Source of the DNA: Terriglobia bacterium
Lineage (GTDB): Bacteria; Acidobacteriota; Terriglobia; Terriglobales; Acidobacteriaceae
Assembly (NCBI GenBank): GCA_963801545.1
Contig: CAWDFF010000042.1
Coordinates: forward strand, 79,964 to 143,963
DNA: 64,000 nucleotides
Direction: 5' to 3'
How positions within the stretch are numbered: the first letter of the stretch is position 1; every line of letters starts with the position of its first letter. Positions 3,258 to 58,093 of this stretch are shown here, piece after piece. The translations under genes were made by a program, and so were the position numbers. The notes under the pieces were generated by a model. That model saw only the letters and a program-made list of their open reading frames with translations, made no database searches and was not told the DNA's origin.

Positions 3258-3330
3258 CGTCGTTGGTCGGTAGTCGTTGGTCGTTGGCTGTAAAGAAACT
3301 CTGGGCGACTGGCCAACGACGAACGACCAG
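3258..3330. repeat. heptamer-repeat hairpin (GGTCGTT)n / CCAACGAC arms
   Basis: CGTCGTTGGTCGGTAGTCGTTGGTCGTTGGC at 3258-3288 pairs with GGCCAACGACGAACGACCAG at 3311-3330. A further CCAACGACC arm lies at 3405-3437. Confidence 0.8.
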
Positions 3331-3439
3331 CAGAAGCCCTGACAAACGTTGACCCGCGCCGGACGACCCGCGCGGGTCCGATTTCCCTCAGGGGCTAGGG
3401 TCTTGGCCAACGACCAAAGACAAACGACCAACGACGGTG

Positions 3440-5604: not shown

Positions 5605-5857
5605 GGGTCGGGCGTCGTCAGACGTCAGACTTCAGGCGTCGTTCGTCGTTGGTCGTTGGTCGTTGGCCACCTCAGAAAATGCTGCCACGGATTTTCGTCG
5701 GATTCCCACGGATCCAAAAGAAGAAAAACAAATTAAGGTTTCGCATCTGTGGATCCGTGACATCCGTGGCTGATTTGGTCTTCGGCCAACGACCAAGGGC
5801 CACGACCAGGGGCCAACGACCAACGACGCCCGAGGTCTGAAGTTTGGGGTCCGACGC
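5605..5857. repeat. nested palindrome: heptamer arms enclosing a GCCACGGAT-type element (5684-5770)
   Basis: Left arm 5605-5668 is (GTCAGAC)2 TTCAGGC GTCGTTC (GTCGTTG)3. Right arm 5784-5857 is GGCCAACGACC...CCAACGACGCCCGAGGTCTGAAG, complementary in the same order. The MITE-like copy 2 sits in the loop. Confidence 0.8.
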
Positions 5858-9129: not shown

Positions 9130-9261
9130 GTTAGAAATAGTTTAGATGAAGACGAGTCGTGGGTCGTTAGTCTTTGGTCGTTGGACCTTGGTCGGCGGGA
9201 GATGGCGTCAGGCGTCGGGCGTCAGGCGTCGAGCGCCGCCCCGGCGCACACCACCCCGACT

Positions 9262-9419
9262 GTCATCCCGAGCGCCGCCCCGAGCCGCGCTTGCGCGGTG
9301 AGGGCAAGCCGAGGGACCTGGGTTCGTGCGCCCATGGAAGCGGCGTTGCGCCGGCAAGAACCCAGGTCCCTCGACAATCTTTCTTCGCGCTCCGCGCGAA
9401 GAAGATCGCTCGGGATGAC
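9262..9419. mobile_element. GTCATCCCGAGCG-type palindromic MITE-like element, copy A
   Basis: 13-bp terminal inverted repeats GTCATCCCGAGCG / CGCTCGGGATGAC. Internal palindromes are CCGCGCTTGCGCGG, GAGGGACCTGGGTT..AACCCAGGTCCCTC and CTTCGCGCTCCGCGCGAAG. Flanked by heptamer arms at 9156-9235 and 9462-9539. Confidence 0.7.
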
Positions 9420-9544
9420 AATGGGATGACAAGATGACAAAGGGTTGGGTTTGGCTGCGTCGCTGAAAGCTGACGGCTGAGTGCTGAGTAGCTGAGTGCT
9501 GAATGCAGTACAGCCGCCAACGACCAACGACAAATGACGCGCGC

Positions 9545-12335: not shown

Positions 12336-12706
12336 AGTCGGTGTCGGCGGAGGCGTCGGACCTCAGGCGCCGGACCTCAGGCGCCGAGCCTCGGGAGTCA
12401 GGCGTCAGCCGCCCAGTCTCGCCGCCGGAAGGACTTGCTGTTGGCGGACTATCTATCCGACTGCGGATTCAGCCGCCGAGAGCTGGCGAGCTGCGCTCGC
12501 CCTGGACGGGTTCCTTCGACTTCGCTCAGGACAGGCTCCGACCCGTCCCCACACAGGTGTCCTACAGTCGGCCTTTTCGTCATCGTCACGCATAAACCCG
12601 CTCCGTTTCGACGCAGACGGCCATATCAGAGGTCCGACGCCTGAGGTCCGAGGTCCGAGGTCCGACGTCCGAGGTCCGAGCGTCCGACGCCCGACGCCCG
12701 CCGTCC
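12336..12706. repeat. heptamer/14-mer arms enclosing a GGACGGGT..ACCCGTCC-type element
   Basis: Left arm 12336-12410 is GTCGGACCTCAGGCGCC x2 and so on. Right arm 12629-12706 is (GAGGTCC)n (GACGCCC)2, complementary. The loop carries CTGGACGGGTTCCTTCGACTTCGCTCAGGACAGGCTCCGACCCGTCCCC. Confidence 0.75.
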
Positions 12707-12726
12707 GGTTTATAATTCTCAAGCAC

Positions 12727-24894: not shown

Positions 24895-25010
24895 TGCAAA
24901 AAATGGTACGTCCGCGAAACGGGCAAGTCAACGCAGGCCGGGGATGGGTAGTGGGAAGTTTTGATTCGGCTGTCAGCTGTCAGCTCTCAGCAATGCGCCT
25001 CAAACTTAGT

Positions 25011-25172
25011 GTCATCCCGAGCAATCTTTTCTTCGCGCTGCGCGCGAAGAAAGATTGTCGAGGGACCTGGGTTTTTGCCGGGGCGAGGCTGGTGCCGATT
25101 GGGCGCAAGAACCCAGGTCCCTCGACTTGCCCTCACCGCGCAAGCGCGGCTCGGGACGGCGCTCGGGATGAC
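25011..25172. mobile_element. GTCATCCCGAGCG-type palindromic MITE-like element, copy B (inverted relative to copy A)
   Basis: Same TIRs and the same three internal palindromic modules as 9262-9419, in reverse order. Confidence 0.7.
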
Positions 25173-25228
25173 AGGAGCTTTGCTGCACTCGGACTATCTG
25201 AAGCGCTGGGATGGAGATTCTCTAGATC

Positions 25229-31035: not shown

Positions 31036-31148
31036 TGGTCGTCGGTCGTTGGTCGTCGGTCGTCAGCCGTTGGCCGTTGGTCCTTAGCCCTGCGAGCATG
31101 GACCGACGTCGCGGACCGAACGACGAACGACCAATGACCAACGACCAT
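31036..31148. repeat. heptamer-repeat hairpin (GGTCGTC/GGTCGTT ... GAACGAC/CAACGAC)
   Basis: The left arm at 31036-31085 is complementary to the right arm at 31101-31148. Confidence 0.8.
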
Positions 31149-31844: not shown

Positions 31845-31966
31845 GGCGTCAGACGTCAGACTTCGGGCGTCGGCCCACCAGGAACAGGGCTTGAGGTCTG
31901 AGGTCTGAGGTCTGAGGTCTGAAGTCCGAGGTCTGAAGTCCGAGGTCTGAAGTCCGAGGTCTGAAA
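31845..31966. repeat. heptamer/14-mer tandem array (GAGGTCT)4 (GAAGTCCGAGGTCT)3 with complementary left arm
   Basis: The left arm is GGCGTCAGACGTCAGACTTCGGGCGTCGGCC at 31845-31875. The right array spans 31890-31966. Confidence 0.85.
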
Positions 31967-49873: not shown

Positions 49874-52435
49874 ATGAAGGCGATGCCGCCCCGCCCACTC
49901 ACTCACACTAGCGCCCGGGTACTGGAATTCGAGCCCCTGCGCGAGTTGATCCAGGGATACGCCTCTTCGCCTCTCGGGCAGGAGAGGATTGCCGCTCTTT
50001 CTCCATCTGTCGATCCCGATTGGATACGAGAACAACATCAGCTCACCACTGAAATTCGCGAGTTTCGCCGGGTTGGAGGCCGCTTCGAGTTCTCCGGACT
50101 GATGGACATCTCAAGATTTGTAGAAGAGTCTCGAATTTCCGGCGCGCTTCTTGAAACTACCGAGATTCGCGATGTGGTGCTGGTCGTTGACCGGGCGGCG
50201 GAGTGGCGGGAAATTGCCCTCAGCCCGCCCGCGGCCATGAAGGTGGAGTGGAACGCGGTGGCCCAACTTTCCTCCGGCATCACCGACTTCACCGATTTCC
50301 TGCGCACCTTTCGCAACAAGATCCAGCCGGACGGCACACTGGAAGACCGGGCCTCGCCGGAGCTGGCTCGGATCCGCCGGGAGATCGAACGACAAAGGCG
50401 AACGATCCAGGAATCGCTGCGCGGCTACCTTCGCCGGCTGGCCGAAGGCGGCGCGGTGCAGGATGAACTGGTCACGATCCGGGGCGAGCGCTTCGTTATA
50501 CCGATCAAGATCGAACAGAAACGCCGGGTGCAAGGAGTCGTACACGGCGCCAGCTCCAGCGGACAGACCGTCTTCGTAGAACCACTGGAGACTATCGAAC
50601 AGAACAACGAACTGGTGCGTCTGCTGGATGAAGAACAAGCCGAAGTCCATCGCATTCTGCTGGAGATGACACGGCGCATCGGGGAAAATGCGGGCGCAAT
50701 CTTGCTCGCGGTGGAGACATTGGCTGACCTGGAACTGCAGTTTGCCAAGGCTCGCTTCGCTGAAGACTACAGCTGCGTGCCTGTGAAGTTTCCTGAAGAA
50801 CAGCTCGCGACAGTGCACAACTCGAGCACAGAGCGAGACTCCAGGGTGGAGCAGGGCTTTAGCCCTGCATATGAGCGGCCCAAAACAGCCGGGGCTTCAG
50901 CCCCTGAGGGACCCGAGCGAGCGGGGCTCATTCTTCACAACGCGCGCCACCCGCTGCTCGAGCGAAACCTCAAGGCGAAGGGCGGCCGCGTCGTCCCCAT
51001 CAGCATCGAGATGGAGGCGGAACGTCTCGAACTGGTCATCACCGGCCCCAACACCGGCGGCAAAACGGTAGCCTTGAAAACTGTGGGCTTGCTGGCCTTG
51101 ATGGCACAGGCCGGCATACCCGTTCCCGCGGATCGAGCCGAGCTGCCGGTTTTCGACGCGGTGCTGGCCGATATCGGTGACTACCAGTCGATTGAGCAGA
51201 ACCTGTCGACCTTCTCGGCGCACGTCACCAACATCGACTTCGTCTCACGCACTGCGACATCGCGATCGCTTGTACTCCTGGACGAGCTCGGCTCGGCCAC
51301 CGACCCCGAAGAAGGAGCGGCTCTGGCAGTTGCCATCGCGGACTATTTCCGCCGGATCGGATGCATCACGATAATCTCCACGCACCACACTTCGCTCAAG
51401 GTATATGGCGCGAACACTCCGGGAGTGGTGAACTCCTCGGTCGGATTCGACGAAGCCACGCTGCAACCCACGTATGAACTGAAAATCGGCGTGCCGGGCG
51501 CGTCCGCAGGTCTCAACATCGCGCAGCGCCTGGGACTGAACGCGACCATCATTGACGCCGCGCGGTCGCGCCTGGGGACGCAGGCCAGAGATGTTGGTCA
51601 ATTTCTGGACCGACTGCATGAGCAACTGCGCGAAGCGGAGGCCGATCGCTTACGGCTGAAAACCCGCGAAGAAGACCTGGAACGGGACAAGACGCGCCTC
51701 GCCGCGGAAGGCCGGAAAGAGCAACAGGCCCGGATCAAAGAAATGGAGAAAAAGCTCGACACCGTGCTGCGCGATTTCGAGTACCAGGCACGAGAGACGG
51801 TCAATGCCATCCAGGACCGGGCTGCGTCACAGAAGCTCTCGAAAGACGTCGAGCGGCGTATCTCCAAACTGCGGCGCGAATTTCGCGAGCAGTTCGATTC
51901 CACCGTGGTCGCGCATACCACAGGCGCTGATCAGGGCGACCCCAATGCCCAGCCGAAAGTGGTAAAGCACGTGTCCGAGGGCGACACAGTCAAACTCAAA
52001 TCCGTGGGACGCCCGGCGGTGGTCAGCCGGCGGCTCGACGACAATCACTTCGAAGTCGAAATCGGCGTCATGAAAATGAAGATTGCGCGCGACGACATCG
52101 CCGAAGTGCTGGTACGCGCCGCCGACTCGCCGGTGAAGGCCGCCCGCGCGCGCGGGGTTTCGGTGTCGCTGGAGAAAGAAGACGCGAACGTGCCCTCGGA
52201 AATCAACGTGATCGGGCGCACAGTGGACGACGCCACCCGCGAGGTAGAAAAATTCGTCGACCGCGCCTTTCTGGCAGGTTTACCGCGGGTACGGGTGGTT
52301 CATGGCAGCGGCATGGGGATTTTGCGGAAAGCGCTGCGGCAGTATCTGCAGAAGCATCCACACGTGGAATCGGTAAGCGAGCCTCCGCAGAATGAAGGTG
52401 GGGGCGGGGCAACGGTGGTGGAGCTGCGAGTGTAG
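49874..52435 (+). CDS. mutS2: endonuclease MutS2 (with repeat-derived in-frame insertion)
   Basis: Walker A GPNTGGKT, DELGSATDP and C-terminal Smr domain (VVHGSGMGILRKAL). Confidence 0.95.
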   Translation: MKAMPPRPLTHTSARVLEFEPLRELIQGYASSPLGQERIAALSPSVDPDWIREQHQLTTEIREFRRVGGRFEFSGLMDISRFVEESRISGALLETTEIRDVVLVVDRAAEWREIALSPPAAMKVEWNAVAQLSSGITDFTDFLRTFRNKIQPDGTLEDRASPELARIRREIERQRRTIQESLRGYLRRLAEGGAVQDELVTIRGERFVIPIKIEQKRRVQGVVHGASSSGQTVFVEPLETIEQNNELVRLLDEEQAEVHRILLEMTRRIGENAGAILLAVETLADLELQFAKARFAEDYSCVPVKFPEEQLATVHNSSTERDSRVEQGFSPAYERPKTAGASAPEGPERAGLILHNARHPLLERNLKAKGGRVVPISIEMEAERLELVITGPNTGGKTVALKTVGLLALMAQAGIPVPADRAELPVFDAVLADIGDYQSIEQNLSTFSAHVTNIDFVSRTATSRSLVLLDELGSATDPEEGAALAVAIADYFRRIGCITIISTHHTSLKVYGANTPGVVNSSVGFDEATLQPTYELKIGVPGASAGLNIAQRLGLNATIIDAARSRLGTQARDVGQFLDRLHEQLREAEADRLRLKTREEDLERDKTRLAAEGRKEQQARIKEMEKKLDTVLRDFEYQARETVNAIQDRAASQKLSKDVERRISKLRREFREQFDSTVVAHTTGADQGDPNAQPKVVKHVSEGDTVKLKSVGRPAVVSRRLDDNHFEVEIGVMKMKIARDDIAEVLVRAADSPVKAARARGVSVSLEKEDANVPSEINVIGRTVDDATREVEKFVDRAFLAGLPRVRVVHGSGMGILRKALRQYLQKHPHVESVSEPPQNEGGGGATVVELRV

Positions 52436-52442
52436 CGCCGTT

Positions 52443-52514
52443 CTGAGGGTAGGGGTGCTTCGACTGCGAATGAGCGGTCGCGAGCGACCGCTCTTCCTAC
52501 GCTCAGCATGACAG
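52443..52514. repeat. solo right-end copy of the GIY-YIG-carrying element
   Basis: 70 of 72 nt are identical to 52982-53053 (counted by eye). It starts 8 nt after the mutS2 stop. Confidence 0.85.
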
Positions 52515-52548
52515 AAAGGAGAGTACCGAATCGGTCCTGTCGGCAACT

Positions 52549-52576
52549 GCTTTGTGACGCCCGTCACAGCTTTTTC
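52549..52576 (+). terminator. weak terminator-like hairpin
   Basis: TGTGAC-GCCC-GTCACA followed by GCTTTTT. Confidence 0.35.
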
Positions 52577-52595
52577 TGAGCTTCAAACCTACCTT

Positions 52596-53053
52596 GTCAT
52601 CCTGAGCGAGGCCGCTTCTTCGCTTGCGAAGAAGCGGAGAGTCGAAGGACCCCTACTCCCTCATGCGATCTCGACGAGAGCGACGAAGCTACTACGTTTA
52701 CGTCATGGCGAGCCTCTCAGGCACACTCTACATCGGCTTGACGAGCAATCTGCACAAGCGAGCGTTCGAGCACAAGTTTCACCGGATCGAAGGTTTCACC
52801 GATGATTACGACGTCGAGCGCCTTCTCTACTGGGAGTCGTACGATGATGTTCACAAAGCTATCGGGCGCGAGAAGCAACTGAAGGGCTGGCGGCGGGACA
52901 AGAAGATTGTATTGATCAAGTCCATGAATCCGCAGTGGCTGGACTTGAGTAAAGACTGGTATCCGGGAATGGACGATCGTTCCGAGGGTAGGGGTGCTTC
53001 GACTGCGAATGAGCGGTCGCCAGCGACCGCTCTTCCTACGCTCAGCATGACAG
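52596..53053 (+). mobile_element. palindromic-end element carrying a GIY-YIG nuclease gene (candidate autonomous MITE parent)
   Basis: The left end is GTCATCCTGAGCG + palindrome + GTCGAAGGACCCCTAC (52596-52656). The right end is GTAGGGGTGCTTCGAC + palindrome + CGCTCAGCATGAC (to 53051). Both the outer 13-mers and the inner 16-mers are inverted repeats. Confidence 0.6.
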
Positions 53054-53070
53054 CGAAAAAGTGTGGGTGA
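52663..53070 (+). CDS. GIY-YIG nuclease family protein (small, stand-alone)
   Basis: YYVYVMASLSGTLYIGLTSNLHKRAFEH...REKQLKGWRRDKK is the GIY-YIG core. The ATG at 52663 is preferred over the track start at 52624. The C-terminal ~30 codons read through the right-end repeat. Confidence 0.85.
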   Translation: MRSRRERRSYYVYVMASLSGTLYIGLTSNLHKRAFEHKFHRIEGFTDDYDVERLLYWESYDDVHKAIGREKQLKGWRRDKKIVLIKSMNPQWLDLSKDWYPGMDDRSEGRGASTANERSPATALPTLSMTAKKCG

Positions 53071-53202
53071 AGAGCAGGTTTTTCCTCGCGATCAACGGGA
53101 TAAGCTTGTATTCCACAGCTTCTCCACAGCAATCTGATTCCGGTATATTCAAATCAGCGGCTTCCAGCCTCACAATTCCTGCGGATAGCTGTGCCTCCAG
53201 CC

Positions 53203-55260
53203 ATGACCGACTCCGGCGACTTCAAGGAAACCGTCAAGCAGCAGGCGGACATCGTTCGCATTGTGGGCGACTACGTCAAGCTGAAGAAGGCGGGGGCGCA
53301 AAACTACTCCGGCCTCTGTCCCTTTCATAACGAGAAGACGCCATCTTTTTCAGTGCACGCCACACGGCAGTTCTATCACTGCTTCGGGTGCGGCGTGTCC
53401 GGCGATGTTTTCAGCTTCGTGCAGAAAATCGAGAACATTACCTTCCCGGAAGCGGTGCGGGCCGTGGCGCAGAAGCTGGGCATTGCCCTGCCCAAAGTGA
53501 ATTTTTCGAGTCCAGCAGAGGCCAAAGAAGCAAAGTTGCGCACGGTGCTGCTTGAGGTCCATGAGAAGGCCTGCGCCTTCTTTCAGGAGTATCTCAAGCG
53601 ACCGGAAGGCGCTCACGCCCGCGAATATCTGGCCGGGCGCGGGCTGAATGAGGAGATGATCAAAGCCTTCCGGATCGGCTTTGCGCCTGACTCGGGGTTT
53701 GTGTTGCGCGACCGGATGAAGGGCGAGTTCCAGGAGGAAGTACTGCGGGAAAGCGGTCTGTTCTCGTGGAAAGTGGCAAACAGCCCTCAGCCCTCAGCCC
53801 TCAGCCCTCAGCCAAACACCAGGTCCCTCGACTCCGCCCGGGATGACGGGGAAGGGGTGGGGACGCGAAGCGATCTCGCGTCCAACGATGGTGAGCCAAC
53901 GAGCGGATTGGGTTCGCAGGTTGGGTCTCAAACCACCAGTTCTCAGATACCAGTTCTCGGTTCTCGGCCAGAGTCCGCGTCCGACGCCCGAGGTCCGGTT
54001 TTCTACTCCAAGTTCCGCAACCGGGTGCTGTTCCCCATCACCAACGAGGCCGGGCGTGTGATTGCGTTTACCGGGCGCACGCTCTCCACTGACGAAAAGG
54101 CTGGTCCTAAATATTTGAATTCGCCTGAGACCGCGATCTATTCCAAGTCGAAGGTACTGTTCAATCTCGACCGGGCAAAGGAATCGATTCGCAAGCTGGA
54201 CTATGCCATCCTGGTCGAAGGCCAGATGGACTGCATCTCGGTGTTTGCCGCCGGCTTTCACAACGTAATCGCCAGCTCGGGCACGGCGTTCACCGAGCTC
54301 CAGGCCCGTCTTCTGGGGCGCTTCAGCAAGAACGTAGTGGTCAATTTTGATCCGGATACGGCGGGCGCCAAGGCTACGGAGCGGACCCTGGGTCTGCTGG
54401 TGGAAGAAGAATTCCAGGTCAAGGTCCTTACGCTGGAGGCAGGCTTCGACCCTGATCTGTTCATCCGCAGGAAGGGTAAAGACGCCTATGCCAGCGCCCT
54501 GAGAAATTCGCAGAAGTACTTCGACTATCTGATCGAACGCGCCCGCTCCCAGTTCCCTGTCCGCAGTGCCGAGGGCAAGGTCAAGGCGGTGAACTATCTG
54601 CTGCCGCACATTCAGCGCGTGCCCAGCCGCATTGTTCGCGACGAACTAGCCCGCGAGATGGCGCAAAAGCTGGGCATCGACTCGTCCGTGCTGCGCCAGG
54701 AGCTGAAGCATGCCGCTGCCAACCGGTCCATGGCCAGCGTGAAAGCGCTCGCCGTGGTTCAGGTCACCGATGCGGAAAGGATACTGATCCGGGCCCTGGC
54801 CTCGGCCACCGAGATGCAGACTTCCGAAGAGCATCTTTCCGCCCGCGACGGCGCGGAAGAGGAATTCGATCCCGCGCGCCAGGCGCAATTTGTCCTCAAG
54901 AGCGAGAGCCTTCACCATGGGCTGGCAACCGAGTCGCTGATCGAAGTCCTGCTCGGCGCGTGGGCGGAAACCATGCACGTCACGGATCTACCGTTGCCGG
55001 ACGCCGACCGCGGATTGCTGGCCTCCATCCTCATGAAGGAGGACGAAGAGCTTACTGCCGAACGCATCGAGGGGGCGGTGCGCGGGCTGCGGCGCATTCA
55101 GCTCAGGCGCAAGTTGGAGAGGGTACAGAGGGAGCTGCAGGCCACGCGAGGACAGGGGGGCGGTCAGATGCAAGCCCTGCTGGAGGAAAAAGTCCGGCTC
55201 AAGCGGGCCCTTATGGACGCCAGTCTGGCCGATGAGGGCCCTGCCGCCCGGCCCGCGTAG
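53203..55260 (+). CDS. dnaG: DNA primase (with ~75-codon repeat-derived insertion)
   Basis: Zinc finger CPFHNEKTPSFSV..HCFGCGVSGD, RNA-pol core FRNRVLFPI..GRVIAFTGR..KYLNSPET and TOPRIM ILVEGQMDCI. Confidence 0.95.
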   Translation: MTDSGDFKETVKQQADIVRIVGDYVKLKKAGAQNYSGLCPFHNEKTPSFSVHATRQFYHCFGCGVSGDVFSFVQKIENITFPEAVRAVAQKLGIALPKVNFSSPAEAKEAKLRTVLLEVHEKACAFFQEYLKRPEGAHAREYLAGRGLNEEMIKAFRIGFAPDSGFVLRDRMKGEFQEEVLRESGLFSWKVANSPQPSALSPQPNTRSLDSARDDGEGVGTRSDLASNDGEPTSGLGSQVGSQTTSSQIPVLGSRPESASDARGPVFYSKFRNRVLFPITNEAGRVIAFTGRTLSTDEKAGPKYLNSPETAIYSKSKVLFNLDRAKESIRKLDYAILVEGQMDCISVFAAGFHNVIASSGTAFTELQARLLGRFSKNVVVNFDPDTAGAKATERTLGLLVEEEFQVKVLTLEAGFDPDLFIRRKGKDAYASALRNSQKYFDYLIERARSQFPVRSAEGKVKAVNYLLPHIQRVPSRIVRDELAREMAQKLGIDSSVLRQELKHAAANRSMASVKALAVVQVTDAERILIRALASATEMQTSEEHLSARDGAEEEFDPARQAQFVLKSESLHHGLATESLIEVLLGAWAETMHVTDLPLPDADRGLLASILMKEDEELTAERIEGAVRGLRRIQLRRKLERVQRELQATRGQGGGQMQALLEEKVRLKRALMDASLADEGPAARPA

Positions 55261-57269: not shown

Positions 57270-57566
57270 TCAGCTTGTTTCCTGGAGAGTTGCCGCTTGT
57301 CCAAGCCGGCGCACTGCCGGCTGCTTGCTTCGACTTGCCTGCCAGAGATCATATTGGCTCTGCATGTTCATCCAAAGTTCGGGAGTTGTGCCCAAGGCAG
57401 CGGCGAGACGAAGAGCCATGCTCGCCGAAATGCCGGCCTTGCCATTCAGGACCCGCGACAAGGTCACGCGAGTGACTCTCAAGTGGGCGGCGGCGACCGA
57501 CACCGCCGTCTTCCCCAAATATTCCCTGAGCACCAGTCCGGGGTGCGGCGGGTTGTGCATTCTCAT
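57270..57566 (-). CDS. higA: HigA-family antitoxin (XRE HTH)
   Basis: [13 protein letters not shown]...[45 protein letters not shown] is the canonical HigA pattern. Confidence 0.9.
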
Positions 57567-57574
57567 AACGGCTC

Positions 57575-57853
57575 CTAGTGATAGTCCTGATAGTCGACGA
57601 GGATCGCGTCCTCATCTTCCAACCGAAACGTCAGACGCCAGTTTCCGCTCACGCTGACTGCCCGGTGATCGGCCAGTGTTCCAGCGAGCCGGTGAAGCTT
57701 CCATCCCGAGGCATTCATGTCTGCCGGAGTTCGTGCGCTATCCAGCGCAAACAGCTGAAGACGCAGCCGGGCTGCATGCTTGGGCTGGATTCCGGCCTTT
57801 GATCCGGTCCGAAAGAACTTCTCCAGGCCACGATGGCGGAAGCTCTGAATCAC
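57575..57853 (-). CDS. higB: HigB toxin (RelE/ParE superfamily, plasmid maintenance system killer)
   Basis: (V)IQSFRHRGLEKFF...GWKLHRLAGTLADHRAVSVSGNWRLTF. The GTG start (rc at 57851-57853) gives 92 aa. The 204-aa track ORF is an upstream run-on. Confidence 0.85.
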   Translation of the reverse strand: MIQSFRHRGLEKFFRTGSKAGIQPKHAARLRLQLFALDSARTPADMNASGWKLHRLAGTLADHRAVSVSGNWRLTFRLEDEDAILVDYQDYH

Positions 57854-57860
57854 TACGTAT

Positions 57861-57889
57861 AGTGTAACGATACGCTTTACGATAGTCAA
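57861..57889 (-). promoter_or_regulatory. candidate higBA promoter TTGACT-N17-TACACT
   Basis: The minus strand reads cTTGACTatcgtaaagcgtatcgtTACACTatacgtaGTG. The -10 lies only 7 nt from the start codon, so the mRNA may be leaderless. TATCGT direct repeats sit in the spacer. Confidence 0.5.
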
Positions 57890-58093
57890 GAGCCATTCGC
57901 CGCGAGTCGGCCACATTCTTCGAGGTCGAAGAGGTTGCGCGTGGCCTAGATTGGAGAGCAGAAAGCAGACCCGGCCAGGGACACAGACGGAATCACCACC
58001 ATTGGAGGGCACTACTTCGGTCGCGCCTTTTGTTTTCTGTGACGTAGCAGCACGACAGATAAATACGCCTGTGGACAAAGCGGAAGAAGATTT

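Follow-up and report, generated by a model that had tools for sequence, protein, structure and literature searches.

In a stretch of 64,000 nucleotides (nt) of DNA from a 1.07-Mb contig of a metagenome-assembled Terriglobia genome, referred to here as the window, the interval between mutS2 and dnaG holds a small gene for a GIY-YIG nuclease, here called ssn, which is enclosed by the two inverted halves of a hairpin repeat. The open reading frame (ORF) at 52663-53070 very probably encodes a nuclease of the Ssn family, and the halves that flank it would be its cognate SRM repeats in a long form. At the left of the locus, mutS2 (853 amino acids, 49874-52435, forward strand; known from the ORF list and from the Pfam MutS_V/Smr annotation of the identical contig in ENA) is followed, 3 nt past its stop codon, by a right-half repeat standing on its own (52439-52514, reverse strand), by a spacer of 80 nt (52515-52594, forward strand) and by the left half (52595-52656, forward strand; the SRM itself occupies 52596-52653). 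The ssn ORF, with 135 codons on the forward strand, starts with an ATG at 52663, 6 nt past the left half, and its reading frame continues through a second right half (52978-53053, reverse strand; SRM at 52991-53051) to a stop codon at 53068-53070. Further downstream lie dnaG (53191-55260, forward strand; ORF list and ENA annotation) and then rpoD. An earlier note on this DNA, made from the sequence alone, had described both the ORF between inverted repeat halves and the extra right half after the mutS2 stop codon, and all of these features are present.

The outer end of the left half is T plus GTCATCCTGAGCG, that is, TGTCATCCTGAGCG (52595-52608). The half is composed, in order, of TGTCA, a TCCT arm, GAGCG, a nested hairpin (52612-52637) with a perfect stem of 12 bp (52612-52623 against 52626-52637), GTCGA, an AGGA arm and CCCCTAC, its inner sequence being AGTCGAAGGACCCCTAC (52640-52656). 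The downstream right half contains GTAGGGGTGCTTCGACT (52988-53004), a 10-bp hairpin (53011-53032) and CGCTCAGCATGACA (53039-53052), with TGCT/AGCA as its stem. The upstream right half is 97% identical to it over 76 nt (52439-52514 against 52978-53053), and the two are direct repeats of each other. According to the SRM scan, the upstream copy carries a long-form SRM at 52452-52512 on the reverse strand, made of GTCATGCTGAGCG, a hairpin and GTCGAAGCACCCC, in which all four closing pairs are formed; it also carries ~10 nt corresponding to the 3' end of ssn.

Family assignment of the nuclease

The only domain recognised in the ssn product is GIY-YIG (Pfam PF01541, E=1.2e-11, residues 23-94). Its core comprises residues 1-100 (52663-52962), and the last ~30 codons are translated right-half repeat. 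Since this tail is read in another frame or is missing in some homologues, it represents read-through of DNA rather than a conserved protein extension. Relatives of ssn number thousands in Terriglobales, and the C-terminus of most of their products is ...GRGAST..RSQAT..PPLSMT, a translation of the right-half repeat. No informative family for the product was found in NCBIfam or PADLOC; the NCBIfam model for group I intron endonucleases scored 14.5 bits against a cut-off of 56. The closest solved structures are those of minimal GIY-YIG proteins of the UPF0213/YhbQ group (PDB 1zg2 and 1ywl), with a marginal match (E = 0.03). These share with the window protein the bare GIY-YIG domain of ~100 amino acids; this group is not known to be associated with repeats. 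A search of the literature on GIY-YIG proteins in connection with REP, miniature inverted-repeat transposable elements (MITEs), RAYT, REPIN, COG2827 or Acidobacteria returned nothing relevant. The publication on Ssn was located through a search on dRS3 and GIY-YIG, after a neisserial repeat had been recognised beside the homologue from Neisseria gonorrhoeae.

The Ssn family (CDD cd10448) comprises single-domain GIY-YIG proteins of ~94 amino acids (Chenal et al. 2025, Nat Commun 16:2388, PMC11893778). SsnA from N. meningitidis binds a 28-nt hairpin, the NTS, as single-stranded DNA (ssDNA) only and in one orientation only, and does not bind RNA. The four characterised members bind and cut only ssDNA and not double-stranded DNA (dsDNA), and these homologues cut the forward strand only, a few nt 5' of the repeat. 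Cutting is controlled by the nucleotides directly 5' of the palindrome, the cytosine right after the palindrome matters more for binding than any other base, and cleavage is kept when the NTS loop is removed, replaced or extended (PMC11893778). An SRM is found near 71% of the Ssn homologues and on both sides of 42% of them. The authors describe NTS-ssnA-NTS as insertion-sequence-like and REP/RAYT-like and raise domestication as a hypothesis (PMC11893778). So far, the family has been characterised in Neisseria and Wolbachia only. The combination of gene and repeats, which the earlier note had considered not to be an established element class, had therefore been published in 2025 as Ssn/SRM.

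The window protein and the SsnA orthologue of N. gonorrhoeae are 49% identical over 76 amino acids (pairwise E=8e-24), and tblastn against the N. gonorrhoeae record gave E=1e-14 for the window protein, within the published homology threshold for the Ssn family (E < 1e-10). This orthologue has 94 amino acids, its Y17 and E64 occupy the positions given in the publication, and canonical NTS motifs flank its gene. The residues Y13, Y23 and E70 of the window protein are the equivalents of Y6, Y17 and E64 of SsnA and, like R33, H37 and N89, they are invariant or at least 90% conserved among 32 homologues. The locus also resembles the published ones in that a single-domain protein of ~94-100 amino acids is encoded between inverted hairpin repeats, which begin with (C/T)GTCAT and continue with a stem and a C after the stem, and in that such repeats are also present without the gene elsewhere in the genome. 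It differs from them in its acidobacterial host (Terriglobia) and in the third repeat copy, which makes a direct repeat around the gene. As a side observation, the ssnA orthologue in the N. gonorrhoeae record (NZ_CP119142.1, L094) looks frameshifted near its 5' end; this record (2.17 Mb) and the Sinorhizobium meliloti "pSymB" record (CP090106.1, 3.72 Mb, L096) are chromosome-sized and are filed as plasmids.

The association between gene and repeats was examined in a comparison set of 80 loci from Acidobacteriota genomes with 87 homologous gene matches (L-numbers designate loci). Allowing up to three mismatches, 82 of the 87 homologous genes have the 13-mer of the repeat end within 300 nt upstream, 73 have its complement within the same distance downstream, and 69 have both. 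Away from GIY-YIG genes, the same loci (716 kb) give a background for the 13-mer of 0.09 per 300 nt per strand (up to three mismatches) or 0.010 (up to one), so that the ends are enriched 10- to 100-fold at ssn homologues; related loci contain roughly one repeat end per 15 kb. Three paralogues within one genome (L039, L041 and L072) are homologous exactly from (GC)TGTCATCC to GGATGACA, with no base beyond, and a locus from another genome (L070) aligns with them over the same end-to-end span. Outside the Acidobacteriota, homologues were found in six records, on large replicons of Planktothrix, Azospirillum, N. gonorrhoeae, Spirosoma, S. meliloti and Novosphingobium. All six are bracketed by inverted hairpin repeats, which start with (C/T)GTCAT except in Novosphingobium; the Azospirillum homologue sits between sufB and sufC, and the flanks of the N. 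gonorrhoeae gene are CGTCATTCCCGCGCAGGCGGGAATCC, which is the dRS3 repeat. The ssn gene and its inverted ends are one discrete unit. The earlier note had anticipated this, and the arrangement recurs in at least 40 different gene neighbourhoods across ~80 acidobacterial genomes, as well as in the six records from other phyla.

Repeat modules with and without the gene

In 169 modules, the acidobacterial repeat consists of TGTCA, four variable bases, GAGCG, a spacer, GTCGA, four variable bases and C. The spacer between GAGCG and GTCGA has a modal length of 32-36 nt, and the whole repeat measures ~58-61 nt. The variable bases form a closing stem of 4 bp, for which TCCT/AGGA, TGCT/AGCA, TCCC/GGGA, CCCT/AGGG, TGTT/AACA, TCTT/AAGA and TTCT/AGAA were observed, and which is paired to 96%, against 83% with shuffled partners. 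Among the 57 distinct rows, cells with double changes number 31, against 8.6 +/- 2.1 after shuffling (0 of 500 shuffles reach the observed count); all four pairs of the stem show such changes, and controls with a slid register are far lower. The nested hairpins are hypervariable, with 146 distinct sequences out of 155, and perfect stems in the nested segment have a median length of 7 bp, compared with 3 bp after shuffling. The window has a left module of the TCCT/AGGA type and two right modules of the TGCT/AGCA type, the halves differing by C/G in the outer 13-mer and by GG/GC in the inner 16-mer. Because these differences are compensated within the halves (TCCT...AGGA and TGCT...AGCA), the pairing that matters is the one inside each half, and a pairing between left and right halves as the selected structure was rejected. 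Folding of the three modules around the gene as ssDNA recovered the nested hairpins, with z values from -2.3 to -3.5 (the left half has z = -3.5).

GTCA directly 5' of the stem, the stem itself and the C after it are shared with the published NTS. Judged by these sequence elements, the module appears to keep the determinants that are read by the characterised enzymes, the loop being expanded and nested. The published SRM pattern, HGTCWYN(0-2)YYVSBRHN(0-5)WNVSBRGN(0-2)RNCYNB, does detect canonical SRMs at the ssn genes of Azospirillum, Neisseria and Sinorhizobium in the same scan, and it misses the acidobacterial repeats because their loop is expanded to ~45 nt with a nested hairpin. Unlike the published SRMs, the window repeats combine a length of ~58-61 nt with the 4-bp closing stem, the GAGCG/GTCGA boxes and the hypervariable nested hairpin, and they are called SRMs on account of the shared determinants and the covariation, not of the curated pattern. 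Since this long modular form escapes the published pattern, censuses of Ssn/SRM are probably undercounts. The 13-mer end of the window, with up to two mismatches, has 14 matches in the window against 5.1 expected, a number reached in 0 of 100 shuffles, and the 64 kb contain eight SRMs, five of which lie away from ssn. With dRS3 and the NIMEs, the NTS being the long form of dRS3, the window repeats have in common the GTCAT-stem-C core and the occurrence as arrays and doublets in intergenic DNA. They differ from dRS3 in the sequence and length of the stem, and dRS3 is an integration target of filamentous prophages, a function for which no evidence was found here.

The reading of the ORF as an Ssn nuclease with cognate long-form SRMs, which we consider very probable, has several points weighing against it. 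Membership of cd10448 (GIY-YIG_unchar_3) is derived from the homology to SsnA; the biochemically characterised members are four, none of them from the acidobacterial clade, and the main text of PMC11893778 does not mention Acidobacteriota. Regarding the repeats, minimum-free-energy folding misses the 4-bp closing stem in the three SRMs around the gene, the published SRM pattern has 0 matches in the window (0.4 expected), and the SRM tally for the source genome rests on the eight within 64 kb.

Following the published work on four family members, from which the sites of binding and nicking at this locus are extrapolated, Ssn would bind only the TGTCA strand of each module, at times when the DNA is single-stranded, for instance while it is replicated or repaired or when foreign DNA is taken up. 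Nicks would fall a few nt 5' of TGTCA; on the top strand this position is just beyond the left end of the unit, and on the bottom strand it is just beyond each of the right-half copies. As to the role of such an activity, the nuclease might maintain or spread the repeats in the manner of RAYT and REP, or it might restrict or modulate recombination of ssDNA that carries them; it may also trim incoming single strands as in Neisseria. The locus and its relatives would extend the Ssn system to soil Acidobacteriota. The covarying 4-bp stem combined with a free nested hairpin amounts to a testable prediction of what the enzyme reads, a prediction relevant to the proposed use of Ssn enzymes as programmable cutters of single-stranded DNA.

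Separately, the last 8-11 nt of SRM ends are repeated locally, as GGGATGACAAT GGGATGACAA GATGACAA at 9412-9440 of the window and as tgtcatcctgactctGTCATCCTGAGCG at ~5915-5945 of L007, and these reiterations may be the trace of cutting and repair just outside the ends. Other identities for the hairpins were also considered. No Rfam family matched the whole window at gathering score; at permissive E-values the left half matched whalefall-1 with 20.6 bits against a gathering score of 37, which was discarded as a generic hairpin resemblance. A hammerhead or another self-cleaving ribozyme, considered from the CUGAG/GUCGAA boxes, was rejected too, as the core does not fit by eye and Rfam is silent.

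SRMs also occur in pairs without a gene. The elements at 9261-9420 (SRMs at 9262-9320, forward strand, and 9363-9419, reverse strand) and at 25010-25173 (SRMs at 25011-25069, forward strand, and 25114-25172, reverse strand) are copies of one element in opposite orientations. Their outer ends, the two hairpins in each and the inner CGAGGGACCTGGGTT pair are all as the earlier note had described them (9262-9419 and 25011-25172); at 9262 the inner pair surrounds a centre of ~35 nt. The proposal in that note that the window ssn unit is the parent of this family did not hold. The stems of the doublets are of the TCCC/GGGA type and their inner pair is CCTGGGTT, compared with the inner CCCCTAC of the ssn modules, and neither inner motif is found elsewhere in the window. 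Beyond the window, the doublets match nothing but the sequences flanking ssn in L051 and L071, where the encoded proteins are 61-63% identical to the window protein, and one arm aligns through the nested segment. As stem type, inner sequence and arm matches point to a different ssn clade, the doublets are not derived from the window ssn; they are probably, on these sequence matches, SRM doublets of a repeat lineage that flanks another ssn clade, comparable to REPINs and NIMEs, and their cognate nuclease, if the genome has one, is outside the window. In relatives, gene-less elements of 83-290 bp are built from the same two modules, and some of them keep ssn codons (L019:6628-6917, L016:5653-5874 and L112). 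The view of the short palindromes as deletion derivatives thus fails for the doublets of the window and stands for those elements of relatives in which remnants of ssn persist. A gene-less subfamily of 210-260 nt (L066:5717-5975, L073:5734-5967 and L078:5699-5950) has a conserved palindromic centre, GGCGTTCTCACGATGC ... GGGAGAACTCCCTG. One ssn clade has a full doublet with this centre ending ~40 nt ahead of the gene, and half a centre plus a right SRM behind the gene, a layout that differs from that of the window.

History and mobility of the unit

The order mutS2-ssn-dnaG is found in 17-20 of the 80 genome loci, with MutS2 identities of 74-86%. Among the syntenic ssn orthologues (n=11), the median nonsynonymous divergence (dN) is 0.16, the median finite synonymous divergence (dS) is 1.7 and dN/dS is ~0.09. 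The low dN/dS, the saturated dS and the synteny together imply that ssn is under purifying selection and has long been at this site. Ssn identity correlates with the identities of MutS2 and DnaG (rho ~0.8), a value that is indicative only, 10 of the 30 points being near-duplicates. These comparisons of sequence show the unit between mutS2 and dnaG to be an old, vertically inherited resident under purifying selection.

Among 120 of the metagenome contigs that carry a 20-mer of the dnaG leader, 67 span the mutS2-dnaG junction, 19 of them with ssn. The layout of the window recurs in L098 and L167, whereas exactly one right-half copy lies between the mutS2 stop codon and the dnaG leader in L195 and L172. 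The right halves are eroded in L178, L102 and L139; both halves surround an ssn remnant in L112, ssn is internally deleted in L168, and a decaying ssn lies within otherwise 90-97% identical DNA in L082-L091. Lineage replacement was considered at L168 (54% Ssn identity) and at L082-L091 (83%) and was rejected, these being in fact the internally deleted and the decaying copies. The empty mutS2-dnaG sites that the earlier note proposed to look for in relatives do exist, as a bare spacer of 148-163 nt in L185, L196, L201 and L129. The two right halves are 97-100% alike within the window, L003, L007 and L167, against a between-genome median of 79%, and in several genomes the upstream right half is closer to its downstream partner than to the orthologous copies. 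We read the extra right half as one of two homogenised direct repeats which occasionally recombine the gene out, in a manner similar to the formation of solo long terminal repeats, and the loss in some relatives apparently took place by recombination between the two direct right-half copies. The earlier note had seen in the extra half the footprint of repeated insertion; the synteny, the dN/dS of ~0.09, the nature of the upstream half as a direct copy and the relatives with exactly one copy, which look like deletions, speak instead for this loss.

Independently of the repeats, the mutS2-dnaG spacer of ssn-less relatives (L100, L109, L110, L125, L126, L133, L144, L156, L171, L175, L180, L186, L197 and L214) holds unrelated small genes and is thus a hot spot for cargo. 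The products include a MazF/PemK-like protein (PRRGEIWTAYLGDAPKRHWV), a zinc-ribbon protein (YKCxxCGKxHEGLPLSFAADSPD) and a protein with FNNxCPYCS.

No target-site duplications, which the earlier note had suggested looking for, were found in 95 elements; direct repeats of 2-10 nt occur next to the ends in at most 6 of 94-95 elements at any offset. Nor was recent transposition detected among 118 ssn copies, in which no pair with at least 88% core identity has both flanks unalignable and every such pair shares at least one flank. One exact protein is present on 16 contigs, in the same context in all of them. The unit was plausibly once mobile, and there is no sign of recent movement.

Among the known systems to which the unit can be compared, REPIN-RAYT is similar in that its nuclease gene is inherited mostly vertically and stands between inverted hairpin repeats, which are also present as intergenic doublets, in that target-site duplications are lacking and in that single-stranded hairpins are recognised. 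The enzyme is different, a hydrolytic GIY-YIG nuclease and not an HUH/Y1 transposase of the IS200/IS605 type, so that the resemblance is one of layout and inheritance, not of enzyme family; lacking the chemistry of a covalent intermediate, a GIY-YIG nuclease cannot by itself reseal DNA. I-TevI and the Seg homing endonucleases share the catalytic fold and residues and are also encoded by small free-standing genes between conserved genes. They have, however, a separate DNA-binding domain and cut dsDNA at a long asymmetric site, whereas the window protein is a bare catalytic domain. For this reason, and because the four characterised Ssn members act on ssDNA only, the homing-like mechanism put forward in the earlier note is not upheld. 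Finally, MITEs and DDE insertion sequences resemble the unit in their terminal inverted repeats (TG...CA) and their short gene-less derivatives, and differ in that here target-site duplications, a DDE transposase and near-identical dispersed copies are all missing.

The interpretation that the earlier note gave of the locus is thus partly supported: that of an active, autonomous mobile element driven by the nuclease, which would excise or copy the unit bounded by terminal inverted repeats or home into empty repeats, with short palindromes as its non-autonomous deletion derivatives, is in our judgement unlikely. It draws on the end-to-end homology of the three paralogues in one genome, the at least 40 contexts and the insertion in operon-internal spacers such as sufB|sufC; the lack of target-site duplication fits a non-DDE mechanism, gene-less elements with ssn remnants exist in relatives, an arm of the gene-less doublet matches ssn flanks in other genomes, and the analogy with insertion sequences and RAYT was raised in PMC11893778 itself. 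An active element is nevertheless hard to reconcile with 118 copies in which no near-identical cores (at least 88%) lie in different flanks, with a window copy that is syntenic and saturated in dS, and with the single context of the 16 contigs that carry one exact protein. Its absence from close relatives is explained by direct-repeat deletion and decay and not by fresh insertion, the failure of characterised Ssn members to cut dsDNA speaks against classical homing, and the doublets of the window do not come from the window ssn. A related proposal, somewhat less improbable but still doubtful, is that Ssn-SRM is, or was in the past, a distinct ssDNA mobile system, a GIY-YIG counterpart of RAYT/REPIN, in which strand-specific nicks outside the ends release or copy the unit and the gene-less doublets. 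If so, the two same-strand right-half SRMs would delimit a single-stranded segment of 539 nt, comprising the spacer, the left SRM, ssn and one right SRM, which could be excised and re-annealed at another right-half site, and the hypervariable nested hairpins of long-form SRMs might be address tags that direct a nuclease clade to its own repeat lineage. The sharp boundaries, the missing target duplications, the gene-less remnants and the solo and empty alleles all bear on the question of Ssn unit mobility.

Two further explanations dispense with the link between nuclease and repeat or make it secondary. That the hairpins act mainly at the level of RNA and transcription appears quite improbable. 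In this view, which follows a proposal made for REP, they would terminate transcription, stabilise mRNA or regulate ssn, mutS2 and dnaG, and it can point to elements placed directly behind stop codons, to the terminator-like hairpin of the spacer and to the stability of the nested hairpins. Against it, the conserved GTCA and stem-plus-C determinants are orientation-specific and correspond to what the nuclease recognises in ssDNA, RNA is not bound by SsnA, the right-half SRMs read against the direction of transcription and no Rfam family reaches its gathering score. The other explanation takes ssn to be ancestral and the repeats to be unrelated intergenic sequences that gathered around it by chance or because the spacer tolerates them; it is effectively refuted. 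The ends keep a fixed orientation and distance at homologues in at least 40 contexts and several phyla, they exceed the background 10- to 100-fold, the homology of the paralogues stops exactly at them, and the association of gene and repeat was reported independently in PMC11893778; all this outweighs the presence of unrelated small genes in the same spacer of relatives and the commonness of a repeat family with roughly one end per 15 kb.

Other features of the locus and the window

The 80-nt spacer contains, at 52552-52569, a terminator-like hairpin, TTGTGACGCCCGTCACAG, with CTTTTTC (terminator scan), which may be the terminator of mutS2. A palindrome of the form GTGAC-N4-6-GTCAC recurs at the same position of the spacer in orthologous loci, and many ssn loci, among them L009, L012, L018 and L077 from other gene contexts, have one similar to GTGAC-N4-GTCAC at a distance of 35-45 nt upstream of their left SRM. 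Downstream of ssn, dnaG is preceded by a conserved leader (CCACAGCTTCTCCACAGCAATC...). This region (53090-53190, CCACAGCTTCTCCACAGCAATC..GGTATATTCAAATCAG..CTCACAATTCC) is non-coding and strongly conserved, its first 20-mer being found in more than 120 metagenome contigs, and it may serve the dnaG-rpoD operon as a promoter or leader element; a promoter scan of 52380-53250 found no sigma-70 promoter.

Within dnaG itself, a short-form SRM, CGTCATCCCGGGCGGAGTCGAGGGACCTGG, lies in the segment for the variable linker (53820-53847, reverse strand; SRM scan) and is present in some and absent from other orthologous DnaG. It is preceded by 4.7 copies of CAGCCCT (53781-53813), and the in-frame translation reads ..PQPSALSPQPNTRSLDSARDDG..., including RSLDSARDD. 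This segment is found in the window, L002, L004 and L007, is reduced in L015 and L019 and is absent from L003, L005 and L013. It is a repeat fragment that an essential gene tolerates, reminiscent of the Rickettsia palindromic elements.

Downstream of rpoD, at ~57271-57917 on the reverse strand, a HigB-like toxin is encoded together with a helix-turn-helix antitoxin (annotation of the identical ENA contig). The window also contains dozens of tandem arrays with a period of 7 nt (GTTTCCA, GTCGTTG/CCAACGA, GAGGTCC, TGAGGTC and others), among them those at 2489-2567, 3259-3435, 5638-5827, 9156-9235, 9463-9531, 12351-12707, 24969-24991, 31037-31147 and 31892-31965. They are often inverted pairs a few hundred nt apart, and several adjoin the SRM doublets at 9262 and 25011; they are a repeat phenomenon of this genome separate from the SRMs.

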